DNA from: Candidatus Melainabacteria bacterium 17Bon1m
Lineage (GTDB): Bacteria; Cyanobacteriota; Vampirovibrionia; Obscuribacterales; Obscuribacteraceae
Reading direction: 5' to 3'
Assembly: GCA_032128875.1 (NCBI GenBank)
Contig: JAVLKG010000002.1
Coordinates: 1-64,000, forward strand
Length of the DNA: 64,000 bases
Below are positions 2,082 through 13,822 of this stretch, one piece after another; the first letter of the stretch is position 1; each line of letters starts with the position of its first letter. Made by a program: the position numbers and the translations under genes. The notes under the pieces are model-generated. The model searched no databases and was not told where the DNA came from. It worked only from the letters and a program-made list of their open reading frames with translations.

Positions 2082-4214
2082 GTGAATAAGGTGATGTCAA
2101 TTGTTTTGTGGTCGCTGGTAAGCCTTCTTGGCGCCGGGTCGCTTGGGCTCATCGCCTTTTCGAACGGAGAGAAAGTCAACGCCGTTTTCTTGATCTCTGC
2201 AGCGGTTTGCACATTTGCGGTTGCATATCGCTTTTACAGCAAATTTATCGCTGAGAAAGTTTTCGCTCTCAATGACGACACTGTCACTCCCGCAATCTCG
2301 ATGGACGATGGCAAAGACTACGTGCCGACCCACAAGTGGGTTTTGTTTGGTCACCACTTCGCGGCTATCGCTGGTGCCGGACCTTTAGTTGGACCTATCC
2401 TGGCTGCACAATTTGGATATCTGCCTGGAACCATCTGGCTGATTGTAGGCGCTGTACTAGCAGGTGCCGTGCAGGATTTCGTCATCTTGTGCGCTTCCAT
2501 GAGACGCAAAGGCAAGTCTCTTGGTCAGATGGCCAAGGAAGAAATCAGCCCGCTTGCAGGTGTGGTGGCGTTGGTTGCCATTCTCCTCATTATGATGATT
2601 TTGATGGCGGTGCTCGCGCTGGTCATTGTTAATGCTCTGAAGGGCAGCCCGTGGGGCGCGTTTACCCTTCTAATGACGATTCCAATTGCGATGATTGTCG
2701 GCGTCTACATGCGTTTTATTCGAGTGGAGAAAATTCTCGAAGGGTCTCTCATTGGCGTTGTTCTCACAATTCTTGCTGTGGTCGCCGGGAAGTATGTCGC
2801 CGCCGATCCTAATCTGGCTGTGTATTTCACTTTGAAAGGGGAAGCGCTTTCCTTCTGGATTATGGCTTACGGATTTTGCGCTTCCGTTCTGCCTGTATGG
2901 GTTCTTTTGGCACCGCGCGACTACCTTTCTGCATTCCTGAAAATCGGAATCATACTGCTGCTCGCCGCGGGCATCCTAGTTTTGCACCCTGATCTTGAAA
3001 TGCCTGCTCTGACAAAATTTGCAAATGGACAGGGTCCGCTTTTTTACGGCAATATTTTTCCATTCTGTTTCATAACCATTGCTTGTGGTGCCGTCAGCGG
3101 CTTTCACTCTCTCGTATCGTCCGGGACTACGCCCAAGATGATTGCCAAAGAACCACATGCCCGCCCAATCGGCTATGCAAGCATGCTGTGCGAATCCAGC
3201 GTTGCAATCATGGCAATCATCGCTGCTTGCGTACTTGCGCCTGGAACATATTTCGCCATTAACAGCCCTAAGGGTATTGTCGGAACTGACGTAGTTCAGG
3301 CCGCTGCCACCATCACATCTTGGGGCTACGAAGTGACCCCGCAAACTATGGAGGCTCTGGCTAAAGACGTTGGCGAAGAAAGTCTCATGGGCAGAACGGG
3401 CGGTGGTCCAACACTCGCCGTTGGAATGGCTCACATATTCTCGAAAGCTGTTTCGTCGGTGGCTGGGTCCGGTGCACTCGATGTGTCCTTCTGGTATCAC
3501 TTTGCCATTATGTTCGAGGCTTTGTTTATTCTCACTTGTCTTGATGCGGGGACGCGAGTTGGGCGATTCTTGCTGCAGGATTTCTTGGGACTTTTGTGGA
3601 AACCTTTAGGGCGGACTAGCTGGTATCCATCGGTCATTTTGAGTTCTGCATTGGTAGTTGGCGGCTGGGGGTATTTCCTCTACCAGGGCGTCGTAGATCC
3701 ACTCGGTGGCATCAATAGCTTGTGGCCATTGTTCGGCATCGCCAACCAGTTGCTCGCAGTGGTGGCACTGGTAGTTGGCACAACGGTAATCATAAAAATG
3801 GGTAAGGCGAAGTACAGCTTTGTTACCTTGGTGCCGCTTGTCTGGCTACTTTGCGTCACATTCAGCGCCGGTTATCTCAAGATATTCAGCCCTGAGCCAA
3901 AACTCGGATTTCTCGCGCACGCACAGATGCTGAAAGATAAAGTCACACAAGGAAATTTGACACCGGCGGAAGTTCACACGCAGAACGTACTGATTTTCAA
4001 CGATTATCTCGATGCCACCATGGGCGGAGTGTTCTTGTTGCTGGTACTTATTATTGTTGTGGAAGCATTGAGGTGCGGGTTTGGGCATAGGCAGACAAGC
4101 TCCGCCGCCACCGGTCCGGATGAAATTACAGGGCAGACGAATATCGATGGTGCCGTAGCTTTCAGCGGACCGTCTGATATACCGCCGGATGCTCCACCAA
4201 TGCGCTGCTGCTAA
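2082..4214 (+). CDS. cstA: carbon starvation protein A (CstA/BtsT-family peptide or pyruvate transporter)
   Basis: Motifs [56 protein letters not shown]; likely GTG start at 2082 (ORF track 1953); ends PMRCC. Confidence 0.95.
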
Positions 4215-4224
4215 AATTACAACC

Positions 4225-5049
4225 ATGATTCCAGAACTCAAGGAACTAGTCGAAAACGAACTCAACTCCGGAGAACAACTTCTCTGGTGCGGGCAACCAG
4301 ACGCGGATAAATTTATCGCTTCTATTGTTCCTGCCTCTGTTGTTTGGCTTTCAGGCTTGTTCCTTTTCTGTGTCGGAGTGATGGGGCAAGCCGGCGATCG
4401 GCAAGGCAATGTTTTGCCGGGGCTGATTGGACTTCTCGTTTTAGTTGCTCTAATCGGTGTTCTCGAGATTATTTTCGTGCCGCTTCGGGCGCGCCAAACT
4501 GTCTATGCCCTGACGGATCGCAGAGCTTTTATACTTACGATACGCAGCCGTTTTACGCATGATGAATCCGGGCGTTCGCATCTGTACGGCAAGAATTTGA
4601 TCAGCGAGCAGAAGAACACTCCAGGGCAGTTTTACTTGTCCAATCTTCCTGCTCAATTGATTTTCGCTTTCCTTGCTATCGATGTTGCTATCTCGATTGT
4701 TCGGCGCTTTGACGTTTTTGTCGCTCTCGGTTTTCTCTTTGTAGTCGTTGGTTGGATTTTGCACTGGTATCAAGACCTGCGCTTGCCACTTGCAAAGTTT
4801 CGCGACACTCCCAAAGTCACTTACAGCGTCAGTGATTTGATTATTTCCATTGAAGACATTCCGTATTCGGAAATTTCTTCAACCTCGATACGCAAAGGAA
4901 AAGACGATCGCGCGGACATCTTTCTGATGTCGAACAATCGCGGTGTGCTGCGAATGAAGTGCACCACTGACGTGACTAAGGCGCTCGACGTGTTTAACAA
5001 ACACTACCCGCCGACGAGAGTCAGCGATAATTCCGAATCAGTCGGTTAA
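4225..5049 (+). CDS. hypothetical membrane protein (4 TM; bacterial PH-like ELxxGEQLLWxGQP...TVYALTDRRA family)
   Basis: ATG 10 nt after the cstA stop; two TM hairpins; motif recognised by eye. Confidence 0.65.
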   Translation: MIPELKELVENELNSGEQLLWCGQPDADKFIASIVPASVVWLSGLFLFCVGVMGQAGDRQGNVLPGLIGLLVLVALIGVLEIIFVPLRARQTVYALTDRRAFILTIRSRFTHDESGRSHLYGKNLISEQKNTPGQFYLSNLPAQLIFAFLAIDVAISIVRRFDVFVALGFLFVVVGWILHWYQDLRLPLAKFRDTPKVTYSVSDLIISIEDIPYSEISSTSIRKGKDDRADIFLMSNNRGVLRMKCTTDVTKALDVFNKHYPPTRVSDNSESVG

Positions 5050-5839
5050 AGACTTCTGCATTATGCGGCGCTCCCGCACGGCTGAATAATACTTTTCCCG
5101 ATGAATCAAGGAACACCAGATGTGGTGTTTGTGAGACACTGTATTTCGCTTTCAATTCCGTGCTGCTATCAAAGTCAATTTCTTCGAATGCGATATCACG
5201 CCACTGCGATTTTACCGCAGCATAAGTGGGTGCAAAATTTTGGCATGTCGAACACCAAGGAGCCGTGAACTCGAGAATTTTGGTAACTCGCGATCTAGTC
5301 TGATTTGTGCCTGAAGAGTTAGAGTTTGAAATTGAACTCGTTGTCGAGCTTGAGTTTGAACCCGAACCAGAATAACCCGAACTGCCAGAGCCCGAATTGG
5401 AACCAGAATTTCCAAACGGCGGAATATAGTCACCAGCCATGGGCGTACTGCCTTTAGCGGTAGAACTAGCCACATACGACTTCGTTCCGCCCATTCCCTT
5501 TAATCCTTGCAATGCCATCGCTTTCAAGCGCGCATCACCATTGGTGGCAACCCATTGGTATTCAGATCTAGCTTTGTCGAAGTGCCCGAGCGCCTGGCGT
5601 GTAAGACCCAGGTAATATCTGATCAACGCATTGGTCGGATAGGCTGCCTTAAGCGACTCAAATTCACTTGCCGCCATCGCATATTTTCCAGATGTGTAGT
5701 CCGAGACCGCTTTGTTGTAAGCGGAGTTGCCCCCAAATGCTGGGAATGCCGAGACTAGCAAAGTTGATAACAGTACTGAAATGGCTGCTGCATAAAACCT
5801 TGAAGTGAGTTTGTTTCTTGAAGCACTTGTGCAACACAT
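5021..5839 (-). CDS. secreted TPR-like + Ser/Gly linker + thioredoxin-domain protein (WCSTC)
   Basis: Signal-like N-terminus; TPR-like YNKAVSDYTSGKY...RYYLGL; C-terminal EFTAPWCSTC...TPHLVFLD thioredoxin fold. Confidence 0.85.
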   Translation of the reverse strand: MCCTSASRNKLTSRFYAAAISVLLSTLLVSAFPAFGGNSAYNKAVSDYTSGKYAMAASEFESLKAAYPTNALIRYYLGLTRQALGHFDKARSEYQWVATNGDARLKAMALQGLKGMGGTKSYVASSTAKGSTPMAGDYIPPFGNSGSNSGSGSSGYSGSGSNSSSTTSSISNSNSSGTNQTRSRVTKILEFTAPWCSTCQNFAPTYAAVKSQWRDIAFEEIDFDSSTELKAKYSVSQTPHLVFLDSSGKVLFSRAGAPHNAEVFNRLIRNYR

Positions 5840-5995
5840 CGCTGATTCTCCAACTATCTAAATAACTAACTAAAGAATTGCGTCTCTTGAGTAAAACAAA
5901 ATCGCGAGACAAACATCTCGCGATTTGCATTTTGGGCAGATTGTTGAACAATTGCGGAGAAGAGCACAACGCCTAAAAGCGTTGCTATCGTTTCC

Positions 5996-6658
5996 TTAGC
6001 GGAATCTGTTGATTGCCTCTGCAAATTGTTCTTCATCGTGGAAGGCACCGCCGTTGTATAGGACATTGCCACTTGAGTCCAGGAATACTAGTCGAGGAAT
6101 TCCTTTGACGTCGTATTTGTTACTTAAATCCTTGTCTTGATCTACATCAACGACCTGGAATTGAACATCGGAGAATTTACGTTTTGTCGCCTCAAACACG
6201 GGGGCGAATTTCTTGCAAGGCCCTCACCAGTCTGCATAAAACTCGTAAATCTTCCTGACTTTTGCACCGGCGACTGGCCTGCCACCTGCCGCTGGAGAGG
6301 CTGATGCTGTGCTCATTGAACCAGACGAAGAACTTGATGCTTTCACTCCGCTCATACGAGACAATCCTTGCGATGCAAGACCCTTCAGTCTCGCGTCTCC
6401 ATATTGCGAAGCCAACTCGTATTCTTGTTTGGCTTTGTCAAAATGCCCAAGTGCCTGGCGGCAAAGGGCGAGGTAATAATGCGTCAACGCGTTTGTCGGA
6501 TACTGCGCTTTGACGGTTTCGAACTCAGATGCTGCTTGTCCATACTTTCCTGCGTTGTAGTCAGCAACCGCTTGTGCATACAAGTTAGGTGCCGACATCG
6601 CAGGTAAAACTGCTATCAATAAGGATGCAAGCGCACCTGCCACATGATTTTTTCTCAT
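5996..6658 (-). CDS. secreted TPR-like + thioredoxin protein with in-frame TGA at the active site (W-U-G-P-C), probable 220-aa selenoprotein
   Basis: ORFs 6224..6658 and 5996..6199 are one frame joined across TGA 6226-6224: ...EFYADW*GPCKKFAPVFEATK...GIPRLVFLD; colinear with the Cys paralog at 5021..5839. Confidence 0.85.
6187..6207 (-). promoter_or_regulatory. candidate bacterial SECIS hairpin
   Basis: mRNA UCGCC-CCCGUGUUUGA-GGCGA; stem starts 16 nt 3' of the UGA. Confidence 0.5.
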
Positions 6659-7198: not shown

Positions 7199-8365
7199 AT
7201 GGCACATTTTCCGAGACAGATATTGGCTTTTCGTAGGTTTTGCTTTCGGCGCCCCTTTTTCATTCACCGCCCCTTATCCATTCAGAGTTCGTTCGCTTTC
7301 GCTTTGAGCGTCATTTTGCTTTGTGCGCTTGGGTTTCCGGCATTTGCCTGCACTGACTTTCGGGTGAACGCAACGGATGGTTCGATTGTGATTGGGCGAA
7401 GCATGGAATGGGGACTGGACTTGAAGTCTCAATTGATGAAACACCCCAGAGGCGAAAAGGTTCAATCTCTTGCCCCAGACGGAAGACCAGGGCTTGCGTG
7501 GACATCGAAGTTTGGATTCGTCGGGATAAATGCTCATGGCACAGACCTTTCCCTGGATGGACTCAACGAAAAAGGCTTTTCAATTGAGTTCTTATGGTTG
7601 CCTGGAAGCGTTTATCAAACAGTCACTGACGCAGACGTTTCCAGTGCCGTCTCGCTCTTAGACCTTGGCTCCTGGTTTTTGGGGAATTTTGAAACAGTCG
7701 AAGAGGCAAAAACAGCCGCAAAGAGAATTAAGGTCTGGGCTCCTCAATTGCCCGACTGGGGAGGTTCTCCGACCGTGCACATCGCGCTCCACGATGCAAC
7801 CGGAAAGAGCGCTGTTGTCGAGTTTACCGACGGGGCAATGAAGGTTTTCGACAATCCCAATGGCGTTTTAACCAATGCGCCCACGTTCGATTGGCAGCTC
7901 ACCAATTTGCGCAATTACATCAATCTGTCGCCCTTTTCGCAAAAGGGAAAGGCTTTCGGCTCCCTTGATTTAGAGCCCACGGGACAAGGCACCGGCCTCT
8001 GTGGAATGCCCGGTGACTTGTCGCCACCGTCGCGTTTCGTGCACACTTCTGCCTACGTGCACTTCGCGAATCCCGTTGCCGATGCGAAGTCTGCCGTGCT
8101 CTTAGCTCAACATATCCTCAACTCGGTGGACATACCGGTAGGTGTGATTCGCACCGCTGATAGTGGCAGTCTCCACTGTGATTACACACAGTGGATTGTA
8201 ATCAAGGATTTGAAAAATAAGACGTTCCACTACCGTGCTTATTCTGATATTTCGCTACACACCATTCAGCTAGATCAGATGAATTTTGCCGAGGGCAGCA
8301 AGCCCAAGTCATGCCCGATTGCTGGCGATACCTACTTTTGCGACGTCAGCAATTACCTTAAGTAA
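7199..8365 (+). CDS. choloylglycine hydrolase / penicillin V acylase family Ntn hydrolase, secreted
   Basis: Signal peptide ending AFA followed by nucleophile CTDF; GRSMEW, DGLNEKG, VLTNAP, PGDLSPPSRFV; start uncertain. Confidence 0.9.
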   Translation: MAHFPRQILAFRRFCFRRPFFIHRPLSIQSSFAFALSVILLCALGFPAFACTDFRVNATDGSIVIGRSMEWGLDLKSQLMKHPRGEKVQSLAPDGRPGLAWTSKFGFVGINAHGTDLSLDGLNEKGFSIEFLWLPGSVYQTVTDADVSSAVSLLDLGSWFLGNFETVEEAKTAAKRIKVWAPQLPDWGGSPTVHIALHDATGKSAVVEFTDGAMKVFDNPNGVLTNAPTFDWQLTNLRNYINLSPFSQKGKAFGSLDLEPTGQGTGLCGMPGDLSPPSRFVHTSAYVHFANPVADAKSAVLLAQHILNSVDIPVGVIRTADSGSLHCDYTQWIVIKDLKNKTFHYRAYSDISLHTIQLDQMNFAEGSKPKSCPIAGDTYFCDVSNYLK

Positions 8366-9696: not shown

Positions 9697-9881
9697 GACT
9701 TGTACCTATCATTGCTCATTTTTTGATTTTAGACATAGGTGCGCGCGGACCTTGGGATTCGGGCGAATGTATATTTGCACTCGATTGTTGAGAGAGCTGT
9801 TGGGCGGCCGACCGTGGCGCGTAGTCTTCTGAAGCGGCCAGTTGCCGTACTCTTTTGAACTATTCATTGATAGGTGAAATC

Positions 9882-11276
9882 ATGCTTCTCACTCTTGCCA
9901 CTACGCATAAGCCTGCTTCTGATCTTGGATTTTTGATGTACAAAAATCCGTCTGCTGTCCAAGCATTTGATTTGCCATTCGGCAAAGCGCACGTATTTTA
10001 TCCCGAAGCCTCTGACGATTTTTGTCGAATCGCATTGCTTTTGGACGTCGATCCTGTTCGGCTGGTGCGAGGTGGGGGCGGGAAGGGAGAAGGAGCGCTC
10101 GATCAATATGTGAATGATCGACCTTACGTGGCTTCTTCTTTTATGAGCGTTGCTATTGCACAAGTCTTCGGCAGCGCATTAGCTGGAAAAAGTCGTGAGC
10201 GCCCTGAATTAGTTAACCAAGCCATTCCCCTCGAGCTAACCATTTACTGCGTGGATTGTGCTGGTGGAGAAGCTCTATTGAAACGAGTTTTCGAACCGCT
10301 TGGCTATGAGATAGAAATCCAACGATATCCGTTGGATCAAACGTTTCCAGAGTGGGGAGAAAGCCGATATCACTCAATCACATTGAGAGCTGTTACCAGG
10401 GTGCATGATATTTTGACGCATGCTTATGTGTTGATTCCTGTTCTCGACAATGAAAAGCACTATTGGGTCGGTGAAGATGAGGTTGGCAAGCTCCTCAGGC
10501 ACGGAGAAGGTTGGCTCGCCAATCATCCAGACAAGAGCTTCATTGTCGACAGGTATCTACAGCGTAAGCGCAAGCTGACTCGACTTGCTTTGGAACGCTT
10601 AACGGACGATGAAGATTCCGATCCAGACGCCACAGACGAAGCTCACGCAAAAGAGGAAGAAGCAGTCGAGCGTCCACTAAGTTTGAACGACCGAAGAATT
10701 GGCAGTGTCATCTCCGTACTTAAGAAAGCTGCGGCACGACGTGTCATAGATCTTGGATGCGGTGAAGCAAGGCTTCTGGAACGGCTTTTGGCGGACAGCG
10801 ATTTTTCTGAGATAGCTGGCGTCGATGTTTCATATCGAGCGCTGGAGGTTGCTAAATCGAAGTTGCGATATGAGCAAATGTCCGATCGCCAAAAAGAGCG
10901 CATCAAGTTGATTCAAGGTTCGCTCACGTATCGAGACAAGCGCATGTCTGGATACGACGCAGCGACCTGCATAGAAGTAATCGAGCATTTAGATCCGCCT
11001 CGACTTACCGCTTTCGAGCGCGTTGTCTTCGAGTTTGCGCGACCCAAAACCGTTGTTTTGACGACGCCAAACATTGAGTACAACGTCAAATTCGAATCTT
11101 TGCCTGCCGGCAAACTGCGCCATCGAGACCATCGTTTTGAGTGGACGCGAGCGGAGTTTCATGGTTGGGCAAATGAGGTTTGCTCGCGTCATGGTTATCG
11201 CGTCGAGTTTCTCCCTGTCGGAGATGAAGATGCAGACCTTGGTCCTCCTACTCAGATGGGGGTTTTCACACTATGA
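9882..11276 (+). CDS. hen1: 3'-terminal RNA ribose 2'-O-methyltransferase Hen1
   Basis: MLLTL..PASDLGFL, YVNDRPYVASS, LIPVLDNEKHYWV, DLGCGE, EVIEHLD, RHRDHRFEWTR; ATGA overlap with pnkp. Confidence 0.95.
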   Translation: MLLTLATTHKPASDLGFLMYKNPSAVQAFDLPFGKAHVFYPEASDDFCRIALLLDVDPVRLVRGGGGKGEGALDQYVNDRPYVASSFMSVAIAQVFGSALAGKSRERPELVNQAIPLELTIYCVDCAGGEALLKRVFEPLGYEIEIQRYPLDQTFPEWGESRYHSITLRAVTRVHDILTHAYVLIPVLDNEKHYWVGEDEVGKLLRHGEGWLANHPDKSFIVDRYLQRKRKLTRLALERLTDDEDSDPDATDEAHAKEEEAVERPLSLNDRRIGSVISVLKKAAARRVIDLGCGEARLLERLLADSDFSEIAGVDVSYRALEVAKSKLRYEQMSDRQKERIKLIQGSLTYRDKRMSGYDAATCIEVIEHLDPPRLTAFERVVFEFARPKTVVLTTPNIEYNVKFESLPAGKLRHRDHRFEWTRAEFHGWANEVCSRHGYRVEFLPVGDEDADLGPPTQMGVFTL

Positions 11277-13822
11277 AAATTCAGATTCCAGAACTAAGCA
11301 TTGTCGCTCTGATTGGACCTTCCGGCTGCGGAAAGTCAACCTTTGGAAAACAGCATTTCAAGCCGACTGAAATCATATCATCTGACTTTTGCCGTGCTCT
11401 TGTTTCTGATGATGAGAATGATCAAAGCGCAACTAAAGATGCTTTTGATGTGGTTCGATTCATCGCTGACAAACGTCTTGCATCGAGAAAGCTTTGCGTG
11501 ATTGATGCGACCAGTGTCCGACCGGAAGATAGAAAGGAAATCGTCAATACTGCGCGCGCTAACGACGTGTTTGCAGTTGCGATCGTTTTCAATTTGCCGA
11601 GGGAGGTCTGTCAGTCGCGCAACGACGTTCGTCCCGATCGCCAGTTTGGTGAACATGTCATAAGACGGCAACACATTGCGATGCGTCATTCGCTCAAAGG
11701 GTTGGAACGTGAAGGCTTTCGACATGTTTATGTTCTCGATTCAGTCGAAGACGTGGACAACGTCGTGGTCGAGCGTACAAAACTTTGGACAGACAAGCGC
11801 GATGAGAAAGGACCGTTCGACATCATCGGTGATGTACACGGCTGTTATGACGAGTTGAAAGAACTGCTTTCTCAATTAGGATATCAGCCTCGTGAAGACG
11901 GAGTTTTGCATCATGCTGAAGGAAGAAAAGCTGTATTTCTTGGGGACCTTGTTGATCGTGGACCAAAGACCCCGGAAGTACTTCAACTCGTTATGAGTAT
12001 GGTCTCCTCAGGGACTGGCTTTTGTGTGGTTGGAAATCATGACGCAAAACTATTGAAGAAACTCAAAGGGCGCGACGTAAGAATTACACACGGCTTGAAA
12101 GAATCGTTGGAACAACTTGAATCTCATCCAGTAGAGTTTAAAGCGCAGGCGTCGAAATTTATCGATAAGCTGGTTAGTCACTACGTACTCGATGAAGGTA
12201 ATCTTGTCGTTGCTCACGCAGGACTGAAAGAGCAATTTCAAGGACGTAGTTCTGGTCGAGTTCGCGAGTTTGCAATGTACGGCGAAACGACTGGTGAAAC
12301 GGATGAATACGGTTTGCCGATTCGGTACAACTGGGCGCAAGATTATCGTGGACATGCAATGGTCGTTTATGGTCACACTCCAGTTCCTGAATGTGAGTGG
12401 ATCAATAAGACTATTTGCATCGACACTGGTTGTGTATTTGGCGGGAAGCTTACTGCCTTGAGATACCCAGAGCGTGAGCTGGTTTCGGTTAAAGCGGCGT
12501 ATACATACTATGAATCGGTCAAGCCTTTTCTGCCCGAGGGTAGCGCCGCCGCTGTCGATGGTGATAGGACGCGTGATTCCGATATGCTCGACATTCAAGA
12601 TGTACTCGGAAAGCGGATAATTTCGACAAGGCTGCAACGAGCAATTACCGTTCGAGAAGAGAATGCAATAGCTGCAATTGAGGTGATGTCCAGATTTGCC
12701 GTAAATCCAAAGTGGCTTGCGTATCTGCCACCAACAATGTCTCCGTCCGAGACTACTCAAGTTGAAGGAATGCTTGAGCATCCAAGTGAAGCACTTCGTT
12801 ACTACTTGAATGCGGGTGTGCCAACCGTCGTTTGCGAAGAAAAACACATGGGATCACGTGCAGTCGTTGTCGTATGTCGCGATGAGAAGGTCGCAGAAAG
12901 TCGATTCAAAGTCTATGGTGAAGGACGTGGCATTTGTTACACGAGAACAGGTCGTCGCTTTTTCAATGACTTGCAGTTGGAGCGAGACTTTATCTTGAAG
13001 GTTCATGCGGCTATTGATGCATGCGGCTGGTGGGATGAGTTTCATTCTGACTGGTTCATTTTCGATTGCGAATTAATGCCATGGTCCGCTAAGGCGCAAG
13101 AACTCTTGCGCAAGCAGTATGCCGCTGTCGGAGCCTCTGCGCAGGTTTCGATGGCTGCCGCGGTCACTGCCCTTCAACAAACCGCAGCGCGTATCAGTGG
13201 AGCAGAAGACCTTCTGGCTAGATATTCTTCGCGTCGTGAACTTGTAGACAAATTTCGCGATTCGTACCGCCGTTATTGCTGGACTGTCAATTCTTTGGAT
13301 GATTTGAAACTTGCACCATTCCACCTTCTGGCGTCGGAAAAAAAGACCTATTTTGATAAGGATCACCGATGGCACATGGATACTCTCGCCAAGCTTGCAG
13401 GAGTAACGGAAGGAATGTTAGTCGCAACACCTTATAAAGTCATTGATGTAACCTCTCCTGAGGATACTCATGCGGCAATTGATTGGTGGGAAAAACTTAC
13501 AGAGAGTGGCGGTGAGGGGATGGTCGTTAAACCTCTGGAATTCATTGCCCGAGGACCAAAGGGATTCGTCCAACCAGCGATCAAATGTCGCGGAAAGGAG
13601 TATTTGCGGATCATTTACGGTCCGGAATATACGGCGCCTGAGAACCTCGAGCGCTTGCGTGTTCGTGGAGTTGGTGGCAAACGCGCTCTTGCAACTCGTG
13701 AATTCGCTTTGGGCGTGGAGGCCCTAGAGCGTTTTGTGCGAGACGAGCCGCTCTATCGAGTCCATGAGTGCGTATTTGGCGTTCTTGCCATGGAAACAGA
13801 GCCTGTCGATCCCAGACTCTAG
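11273..13822 (+). CDS. pnkp: polynucleotide kinase-phosphatase-ligase Pnkp
   Basis: P-loop GPSGCGKST; metallophosphoesterase GDVHG/GDLVDRG/GNHD; ligase EEKHMGSRA and EGMVVKP; C-terminal EPVDPRL. Confidence 0.96.
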   Translation: MKIQIPELSIVALIGPSGCGKSTFGKQHFKPTEIISSDFCRALVSDDENDQSATKDAFDVVRFIADKRLASRKLCVIDATSVRPEDRKEIVNTARANDVFAVAIVFNLPREVCQSRNDVRPDRQFGEHVIRRQHIAMRHSLKGLEREGFRHVYVLDSVEDVDNVVVERTKLWTDKRDEKGPFDIIGDVHGCYDELKELLSQLGYQPREDGVLHHAEGRKAVFLGDLVDRGPKTPEVLQLVMSMVSSGTGFCVVGNHDAKLLKKLKGRDVRITHGLKESLEQLESHPVEFKAQASKFIDKLVSHYVLDEGNLVVAHAGLKEQFQGRSSGRVREFAMYGETTGETDEYGLPIRYNWAQDYRGHAMVVYGHTPVPECEWINKTICIDTGCVFGGKLTALRYPERELVSVKAAYTYYESVKPFLPEGSAAAVDGDRTRDSDMLDIQDVLGKRIISTRLQRAITVREENAIAAIEVMSRFAVNPKWLAYLPPTMSPSETTQVEGMLEHPSEALRYYLNAGVPTVVCEEKHMGSRAVVVVCRDEKVAESRFKVYGEGRGICYTRTGRRFFNDLQLERDFILKVHAAIDACGWWDEFHSDWFIFDCELMPWSAKAQELLRKQYAAVGASAQVSMAAAVTALQQTAARISGAEDLLARYSSRRELVDKFRDSYRRYCWTVNSLDDLKLAPFHLLASEKKTYFDKDHRWHMDTLAKLAGVTEGMLVATPYKVIDVTSPEDTHAAIDWWEKLTESGGEGMVVKPLEFIARGPKGFVQPAIKCRGKEYLRIIYGPEYTAPENLERLRVRGVGGKRALATREFALGVEALERFVRDEPLYRVHECVFGVLAMETEPVDPRL

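Follow-up and report, generated by a model that had tools for sequence, protein, structure and literature searches.

Positions 5996-6658 on the minus strand of a 64,000-nucleotide (nt) stretch of contig JAVLKG010000002.1 (assembly GCA_032128875.1, Candidatus Melainabacteria bacterium 17Bon1m) hold a single reading frame of 220 codons followed by a TAA stop. This stretch is referred to as the window, and its source genome is coded G000. Translation of the window places the sole internal stop of the frame at codon 145, a TGA at 6226-6224 in the context TGG TGA GGG CCT TGC, which reads W-U-G-P-C if the TGA encodes selenocysteine (Sec, U). A mechanical list of open reading frames (ORFs) cuts the gene at this codon into two pieces, 6224-6658 (144 amino acids) and 5996-6199 (67 amino acids). 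Seventy-five codons lie 3' of the TGA and include the K-G-I-P of a thioredoxin cis-proline position, and a hairpin pairing UCGCC with GGCGA begins exactly 16 nt after the UGA, at 6207-6187. Translation and the ORF list thus confirm what an earlier note, made from the sequence alone, had described: one gene split in a single frame by a lone TGA, with an intact thioredoxin half and GIP loop downstream and a hairpin at that distance. The note had taken the gene for a hidden selenoprotein, and the Sec machinery, the spread of the TGA, the alternation of Sec and Cys, purifying selection and the hairpin, which resembles a selenocysteine insertion sequence (SECIS) element, all agree with that proposal. 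The UGA at codon 145 very probably encodes selenocysteine, giving one presumably exported selenoprotein of 220 residues that combines tetratricopeptide repeats (TPR) with a thioredoxin domain.

The predicted protein has four parts. Residues 1-23 (6590-6658, minus strand, as for all features of the gene) look by eye like a signal peptide of the secretory (Sec) type or a signal anchor, with a basic MRKNH start, a hydrophobic core and A-M-S-A; the N-termini of the orthologs are likewise signal-like on inspection, and residues 1-20 have low pLDDT in the AlphaFold2 model. The cleavage site is uncertain because a proline follows A-M-S-A. Residues 26-103 (6350-6583) form a TPR domain, matched by Pfam TPR_19 (residues 36-96, E 2.9e-06) and TPR_2, and modelled as five helices (26-35, 39-52, 57-70, 73-86 and 89-103) with pLDDT of 94-98 across the block. 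A disordered linker rich in Ser, Gly and Ala follows at residues 104-135 (6254-6349); its pLDDT falls below 50 at residues 107-123, and its length varies among orthologs.

The remainder, residues 136-220 (5999-6253), is a minimal thioredoxin domain carrying U145-G-P-C148 and the cis-proline P188. Pfam Thioredoxin (PF00085) matches residues 135-216 with 69 bits against a cut-off of 23.5 (E 3.8e-19), and alignment columns 145 (Sec or Cys), C148 and P188 are invariant. The AlphaFold2 model, built from 29 aligned sequences with C in place of U, has a mean pLDDT of 84.7 and two confident domains; its pTM is low (0.46), hence no fixed orientation between the TPR and thioredoxin domains can be read from it. 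Residues 136-218 adopt a beta-alpha-beta-alpha-beta-beta-alpha thioredoxin fold. Foldseek against the PDB found canonical thioredoxins as best matches (TM to target up to 0.91, 22-35% identity), and the best profile matches in the PDB are protein disulfide isomerase (PDI)-type and thioredoxin domains, such as a TXNDC5 chain (E 4.8e-31). The order proposed in the earlier note, signal peptide, TPR, linker and thioredoxin, is therefore supported by Pfam and AlphaFold2 for its domains, while inspection of the N-terminus suggests export.

Conservation of the in-frame TGA

Related genomes were searched reading through stops, with 61 genomes covered, 37 from the same family and 24 from outside it. 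Nineteen of the 61 have this frame, interrupted by one TGA, and it was read at 20 loci; all 19 genomes belong to the family (19/37 within it, against 0/24 outside), and identity to the window protein ranges from 87% down to 34%. At all 20 loci the TGA supplies the U of an x-U-x-x-C motif, and in 12 of them the motif is W-U-G-P-C. No frame disruption occurs in any of these loci, and the orthologs share both the frame and the TGA. Twenty further homologs, comprising tandem paralogs and some orthologs, carry Cys at the position aligned to the TGA, the first Cys of CxxC, and the dipeptides within the motif vary among the Cys paralogs (CSTC, CGVC, CAVC).

A maximum-likelihood tree of 42 rows places the Sec forms along the backbone of the family, with the tandem Cys paralogs of the genus nested within the genus-level Sec clade, and its well-supported branches force at least three switches between Sec and Cys. 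Both patterns for which the earlier note had suggested searching the relatives, a conserved TGA and its alternation with Cys, were therefore seen. Selection on the part after the TGA was measured over 74 codons in eight genus-level orthologs, using 23 unsaturated pairs (five more pairs had saturated dS). The median dN/dS is 0.10 and the maximum 0.234, a strongly purifying regime that refutes the relaxed selection expected downstream of a simple nonsense mutation.

Beyond these genomes, a DNA pattern scan of a public genome collection recovered the Sec-specific signature in 49 stretches on 47 contigs, with the N-terminal half of the family upstream of it in all 49. Contigs from two independent DNA studies span the entire stretch; they show 5 and 15 differences from it, and no difference falls at the TGA or in the hairpin. 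A TGA unique to this assembly, which the earlier note had named as a reason to abandon its proposal, is thus not what the relatives show, and assembly error is excluded as the source of the TGA. That the gene is a pseudogene interrupted by a nonsense mutation or an assembly error, for which one might cite gene callers ending at the TGA and products of 124-149 amino acids in public databases, can be dismissed as practically negligible in view of the same-codon TGA in 19 genomes, 49 collection stretches and the contigs of two studies, the dN/dS values and the undisturbed frames.

The family appears to be taxonomically narrow. Among 300 other genomes sampled across the phylum, none contains it at E <= 1e-18, and in the related-genome search the other families of the class gave only weak, thioredoxin-level matches; among the genomes searched, the TPR-thioredoxin selenoprotein is confined to one family of Obscuribacterales. 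The record names of the 49 loci comprise 23 labelled Obscuribacter, Obscuribacterales or Obscuribacteraceae, nine Melainabacteria, eight unspecified Cyanobacteria, four "bacterium" and five others. These last, loci L083, L088, L091, L105 and L115, come from records labelled Flavobacterium psychrophilum, Bryobacterales, Proteobacteria, Planktothrix and Oculatellaceae, and they may be mislabelled or mixed bins, or cases of gene transfer. Some relatives carry two Sec-form copies in tandem (L041:955-1227 with L041:1501-2118, and also L078/L079, L100, L105 and L107/L108), the pattern matches lying 540-690 nt apart. In genome G018 the second Sec-form copy is a Sec-thioredoxin half in which a TPR part is not recognisable.

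The downstream hairpin and the selenocysteine machinery

The SECIS-like hairpin, UCGCC(C)-CCGUGUUU-G(A)GGCGA at 6187-6207, lies within the codons for F-A-P-V-F-E-A-T. Across the 20 Sec forms the block TTY GCN CCC GTG TTT GAN GCR AC is nearly invariant, and the stem covaries at third codon positions: TTC occurs with GCG in eight loci and TTT with GCA in 11, while GCC is partnered with GAG in six, GCG with GAC or GGC in 12 and GCT with GAA in one. Expressed as base pairs, pair 27-45 is U-A in 12 Sec forms and C-G in eight, and pair 30-42 is G-C in 12, C-G in six and U-A in one. Three of the six stem pairs show changes on both sides. The structure is paired in 97.5% of cells, a value reached by none of 500 shuffles, and pairing falls to 16-58% when the partner is slid by one to three columns.

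The Cys forms provide the comparison, as most of them encode the same F-A-P-V/I-F/Y peptide. In the same columns the 20 Cys forms are 61.7% paired, no better than the shuffles (476 of 500 reach that value), and all five core stem pairs are present in 2/20 of them, as opposed to 19/20 Sec forms. The loop codons CCC and GTG are each found in 20/20 Sec forms; in the Cys forms CCC accounts for 8 of 19 Pro codons and GTG for 4 of 10 Val codons. Because synonymous sites are saturated even within the genus, neither common descent nor codon bias accounts for the invariance of the loop codons, which reflects a constraint acting on the RNA. The hairpin thus behaves as a SECIS element, as the earlier note had suspected from its place 3' of the UGA, and similar loops accompany four other putative Sec genes of the genome.

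The element agrees in some respects with the bacterial SECIS (bSECIS) described elsewhere. The consensus given in section 5 and the Figure 2 legend of PMC13188914 specifies a loop of 3-9 nt, a stem of 4-16 bp, a G in the first two loop positions, a spacing of 16-37 nt and a minimum free energy of at most -7.5 kcal/mol. Like the bSECIS outlined in those parts of the source, the present hairpin is an intragenic stem-loop just 3' of the UGA, with a loop of 8 nt, a stem of 6 bp and G-U in the loop, and its apical loop lies 22 nt from the UGA (PMC13188914).

All four components of the Sec system that the earlier note had proposed looking for are encoded in G000 and score above curated cut-offs: selA (496.8 bits), selB (285.8 bits), selD (370.2 bits) and selC, the tRNA-Sec with anticodon TCA (UCA; 67.5 bits). 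A genome devoid of such machinery, which would have spoken for a plain stop, is therefore not the case here. Co-occurrence with the TGA form extends across the family. Of the 19 genomes with that form, 18 have selB above cut-off and the remaining one (G017) has a piece scoring 170 bits within a frame of 708 amino acids; selA is above cut-off in 16, the three misses (G002, G003 and G005) being metagenome-assembled genomes (MAGs) of 93, 84 and 82% completeness. Five genomes of the family have neither selA nor selB (G013, G016, G024, G029 and G036; 58-96% complete), and none of the five carries the TGA form; three of them, G024, G029 and G036, have Cys forms.

Several points weigh against reading codon 145 as selenocysteine. 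The source genome is itself a MAG assigned to Obscuribacterales (7.55 Mb, 35 contigs, 93.22% complete, 4.49% contamination), and the Sec machinery lies on contigs other than that of the gene. RNA-library contigs of 16-42 kb that contain the stretch, from three runs on the probable source sample, attest its presence and not its transcription, and the case for Sec insertion is a comparative one. As for the hairpin, the lone fold of the 73 nt after the UGA is ordinary (z = +1.43; 188 of 200 shuffles are at least as stable), and its significance accordingly comes only from the comparison across genomes; a search of Rfam with permissive thresholds returned no SECIS family, its sole hit being a snoRNA match attributable to chance (E 4.6). 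One of the 20 Sec forms, in genome G031, does not have the same stem, and the peptide differs there. Two features depart from the consensus as set out in the parts of PMC13188914 cited above: the first G stands at loop position 3 instead of within the first two, moving to position 2 only if a C.U mismatch closes the loop, and the hairpin alone has about -6.5 kcal/mol against the limit of -7.5, its enclosing 66-nt fold reaching -10.2.

Were the UGA a true stop, the product would be an exported TPR protein of 144 residues, and the thioredoxin half would either not be translated or start independently at the GTG at 6199. An ORF with that start does exist (5996-6199), and Sec insertion in bacteria is usually inefficient, such that some truncated product is to be expected in any case. 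The 67-residue product, however, would have no CxxC motif at all and would miss the opening strand and helix of the thioredoxin fold; moreover, none of the 20 loci loses the frame at the TGA, genomes with the TGA form in most cases also have selB and selA, and the covarying hairpin and its invariant loop codons would have no role. Such a reading is very unlikely. It is similarly improbable that the UGA is read through by other means, with Trp or Cys inserted by a near-cognate tRNA or with a suppressor tRNA, given that a complete Sec system is present, that the TGA aligns with a redox-active Cys, and that a SECIS-type hairpin stands at the canonical distance and is common to other conserved-TGA genes. 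The absence of the TGA form from the five genomes with neither selA nor selB points the same way, as does the frequency of TGA as a stop: it terminates 901 of the 3546 genome frames open for at least 300 codons and 13 of the 49 window frames open for at least 200 codons. These counts also confirm that TGA is an ordinary stop elsewhere and that the code has not been reassigned.

Function, relatives and neighbourhood of the TPR-thioredoxin

With codon 145 read as selenocysteine, a course of action for the protein can be proposed. SelB carrying Sec-tRNA would bind the hairpin 16 nt after the UGA, leading to the insertion of Sec145, and the protein would then be exported to the cell envelope. There, the selenolate of W-U-G-P-C-K would attack disulfides or other oxidised sulfur of client proteins, Cys148 would resolve the resulting selenenylsulfide, and the flexibly tethered TPR domain would determine which clients or partner are bound. 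Re-reduction could proceed through a membrane electron transporter of the DsbD/CcdA type, and a DsbD_TM protein is encoded in G000 at C9:165738-166373. The TPR-thioredoxin is on balance probably a thiol-disulfide reductase of the cell envelope.

A different function is unlikely, though it deserves consideration: the protein could be a genuine selenoprotein acting as an oxidase or isomerase similar to DsbA or DsbC, as a peroxidase-type scavenger, or in the handling of selenium or metals. Its presumed compartment is an oxidising one, PDI domains are among its best PDB profile matches, including the TXNDC5 chain, and the varied CxxC motifs of the Cys paralogs suggest tuned redox potentials. Against such a role stand the W-U-G-P-C of 12 of the 20 Sec forms, a motif of the reducing thioredoxin type, the presence of the DsbD_TM electron importer and the fact that the nearest folds are those of reducing thioredoxins. 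Three points nevertheless count against the proposed reductase as well. Its signal peptide was judged by eye, the putative direction of its reaction draws solely on the likeness of the motif to thioredoxin, and at the 49 loci no neighbour is conserved beyond the tandem paralogs that might suggest a client.

Selenoproteins with a thioredoxin fold and UxxC are well established, as is the way in which they are decoded, and the mechanism is not new. The known Sec-containing thioredoxin reportedly comes from Treponema denticola, where it is cytoplasmic and consists of a single domain. Selenoprotein thioredoxin (Trx, PF00085, UxxC) appears among the experimentally verified prokaryotic selenoproteins in the tables of two reviews, with Kim et al. 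2015 given as the source (PMC9312934, PMC13188914). The present protein shares its Pfam family and has Sec at the first position of UxxC; it differs in that its thioredoxin domain is shortened and comes after the signal peptide, TPR domain and linker. The TrxA equivalog model (TIGR01068) gives 67.4 bits and does not reach its cut-off of 96.8; the protein carries a thioredoxin-family domain and is not a TrxA ortholog.

The same tables list several predicted envelope selenoproteins of thiol-disulfide metabolism, namely a thiol:disulfide interchange protein (PF13098, UxxC), a Prx-like thiol:disulfide oxidoreductase (PF00578, UxxC) and a UGC-containing TlpA family (PMC9312934, PMC13188914). As far as these tables describe them, they resemble the TPR-thioredoxin in having an exported thioredoxin fold with Sec at the attacking position, and a TlpA-like member is also encoded in G000 (described below). 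Scores against the models for TlpA (NF047696, 24.2 against 230), ResA (NF002854, 25.1 against 170) and DsbE (TIGR00385, 18 against 123.15) are far below their cut-offs, and in contrast to TlpA and ResA the domain is of the classical WxGPCK thioredoxin type, does not have their insertions and is joined to a TPR domain. The protein may therefore work like the TlpA, ResA and DsbE reductases, although it is not a member of those families. None of the curated NCBIfam selenoprotein models is exceeded, the best being seleno_TsoB (33.5 against 805), with PDO_seleno_TRX at 18.6 against 185.

Proteins that combine TPR and thioredoxin domains include CnoX (YbbN) of Escherichia coli and the plant tetratricoredoxin TDX. 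In CnoX the thioredoxin domain comes first and does not have a full CxxC, and TDX is cytosolic and eukaryotic; neither is known to be exported or to contain Sec. Compared with these proteins as they are generally described, the present one has a similar pairing of thioredoxin with a TPR interaction module, which suggests client targeting. When the ESM Atlas was searched with the Cys paralog, its own cluster was found at 0.96 and other clusters at 0.90 or below; those with thioredoxin and TPR in other phyla all score below 0.9, and these further clusters are leads only.

The way in which the family is represented in databases is in keeping with the earlier note, which had recognised no characterised family: no NCBIfam model reaches its cut-off, and the Sec forms in the database end at the TGA. 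Among 75 database homologs at E <= 1e-10, 29 are pieces of 124-155 amino acids covering the N-terminal 55-65% of the query, and these short entries, where named, are called tetratricopeptide repeat protein, hypothetical protein, BamD or TolA-binding. Two that were examined have ...ADW and ...ASW as their last residues, the W being the one that immediately precedes the TGA. Because these entries stop before the TGA, the thioredoxin half and its active site are invisible to annotation-based analysis, and a whole family is wrongly recorded. Full-text literature searches pairing selenoprotein or selenocysteine with Melainabacteria, Obscuribacter or Vampirovibrionia found nothing relevant, and a search on exported TPR-thioredoxins likewise found nothing relevant. 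The family might conceivably be listed under another name, as the review table gives families and not taxa. The gene at 5996-6658, itself unannotated, very probably encodes a genuine selenoprotein, the first example of a family of presumably exported TPR-thioredoxins that is specific to this lineage.

Next to the Sec gene, at 5021-5839 on the same strand, lies its tandem Cys paralog, identified from the ORF list, Pfam and the tree, which has a signal peptide, a TPR domain, a longer linker and a thioredoxin domain with W-C-S-T-C. This paralog, which falls inside the genus-level Sec clade of the tree, has no SECIS-type stem and would be a selenium-independent relative with a different CxxC dipeptide. 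A terminator-like hairpin with a 12-bp stem and a T-rich tail, found by a consensus scan only, lies between the two genes (5899-5926, minus strand), about 70 nt after the stop codon of the Sec gene. No gene neighbour is conserved in the 49 loci other than the family's own copies, the next commonest cluster occurring in 15 of them.

The Sec gene is also flanked by a protein of the choloylglycine hydrolase family (CBAH) with a signal-like N-terminus (7199-8365, plus strand; E 4.6e-62), and a CBAH-like ORF lies near the Sec gene in 6 of the 49 related loci. Another flanking gene (4189-5049, plus strand) encodes a protein of 286 amino acids with no Pfam match. Farther along the window, at 9855-13822 on the plus strand, is an RNA-repair pair, Hen1 (Hen1_L and methyltransferase domains, E 8.2e-109) followed by Pnkp (E 9.7e-177) with kinase, phosphoesterase and ligase domains; the Hen1 stop overlaps the Pnkp start.

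Other conserved-TGA genes of the lineage

The genome was scanned for hairpins located 10-24 nt 3' of an in-frame TGA, with a stem of 5 bp or more, CCGUG at the start of the loop and frames open on both sides of the TGA. Among the 38 matches, four of the five with the longest frames are the TPR-thioredoxin, a TlpA-like gene and two genes for proteins with signal peptides, one on C6 and one on C4, in both of which a stem of 6 bp lies exactly 16 nt 3' of the TGA. A narrower scan of the genome for C[CT]GTG[TC] revealed no other convincing gene, and the two matches to PF00384 (formate dehydrogenase type) in the genome are both without a TGA. A genome-wide scan for split frames, based on codon usage and redox motifs, was too noisy to use, with the TPR-thioredoxin gene itself scoring only 0.02 upstream of its TGA.

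Together with a paralog of the C4 gene on C11, the TlpA-like gene and the two signal-peptide genes have a stem-loop 16-20 nt after the in-frame UGA, with a loop of the C(C)GUGU type (CGGGU in the C11 paralog). That unrelated conserved-TGA genes of one genome share a type of hairpin is as expected of SECIS elements bound by SelB. The TlpA/ResA-like gene, which came from a search for AhpC/TSA (Pfam AhpC-TSA, E 3.7e-11), encodes a putative lipoprotein with an L-M-G-C lipobox recognised by eye (G000:C5:51293-52306; L121:794-1810). Its TGA, which lies in W-S-M-T-U-H-S-C, is present in all eight matches from seven genomes and is followed after 20 nt by the hairpin UCCCU-CCGUGAA-AGGGA.

The gene on C6 (G000:C6:272795-274159; L122:296-1660) encodes a predicted exported protein with R-F-C-U-T-N-A-R at the TGA, and is weakly similar to models of VPGUxxT thioredoxin-like (seleno)proteins (E 6.5e-4, far below cut-off) and to DUF255. 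Its TGA is kept in 16 of 17 matches, and the surroundings of its Sec site resemble those of the C4 family. The C4 gene itself (G000:C4:97536-98603; L123:337-1407) encodes a predicted exported protein of about 356 amino acids that has a signal peptide; its in-frame TGA falls within G-A-T-U-S-A-G-N, and neither Pfam nor NCBIfam gives a match at E <= 0.01. Its hairpin has the loop CCGUGUCG, and its paralog is at G000:C11:87521-88387. With the TGA kept in 51 of 52 matches, found in 24 of the 37 related genomes at up to four copies per genome, and with no Cys form among the 52, this family may be the most widespread selenoprotein of the lineage. The two matches without the TGA in the C6 and C4 families are fragments that do not cover the site. 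Finally, an MsrA (PMSR) domain with one in-frame TGA is encoded at G000:C1:605245-605728 (L126/L127), split into two pieces in this strain.

The Sec trait is not unique to Obscuribacterales, as selA is above cut-off in 23 of the 300 other genomes sampled across the phylum. By family code, the positive genomes are 7/8 of f10, 7/8 of f22, 4/6 of f16, 4/10 of f24 and 1/1 of f36, with selA in 0/123 of f6. A 2022 review, in the part consulted here, describes Cyanobacteria as appearing to be without Sec (PMC9312934), whereas selA and selB are often present in the non-photosynthetic branch considered here.

The wider set of Sec genes for exported proteins adds to the interest of the TPR-thioredoxin. 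A speculative and rather doubtful extension is that Obscuribacterales run an extracytoplasmic selenium redox network, comprising at least five exported or anchored products of conserved-TGA genes and served by one lineage-specific SECIS loop, in which the TPR-thioredoxin would be the TPR-targeted reductase and its UGA might act as a selenium gauge. Its members may include the TPR-thioredoxin, the TlpA-like lipoprotein, two to three members of a family with weak or no Pfam or NCBIfam matches and a Sec-type MsrA that is broken here. If this were true, selenium scarcity would lead to termination at the UGA, leaving a protein of the TPR part alone that could still bind clients, and the tandem Cys paralog, transcribed separately, would take over. 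Independently of such a network, the comparisons provide a well-supported SECIS signature of the lineage, in which a C(C)GUGU-type loop follows the UGA at 16-20 nt; as a search key this signature recovered further putative Sec genes in the genome, and it would lend itself to mapping the selenoproteome across the group.

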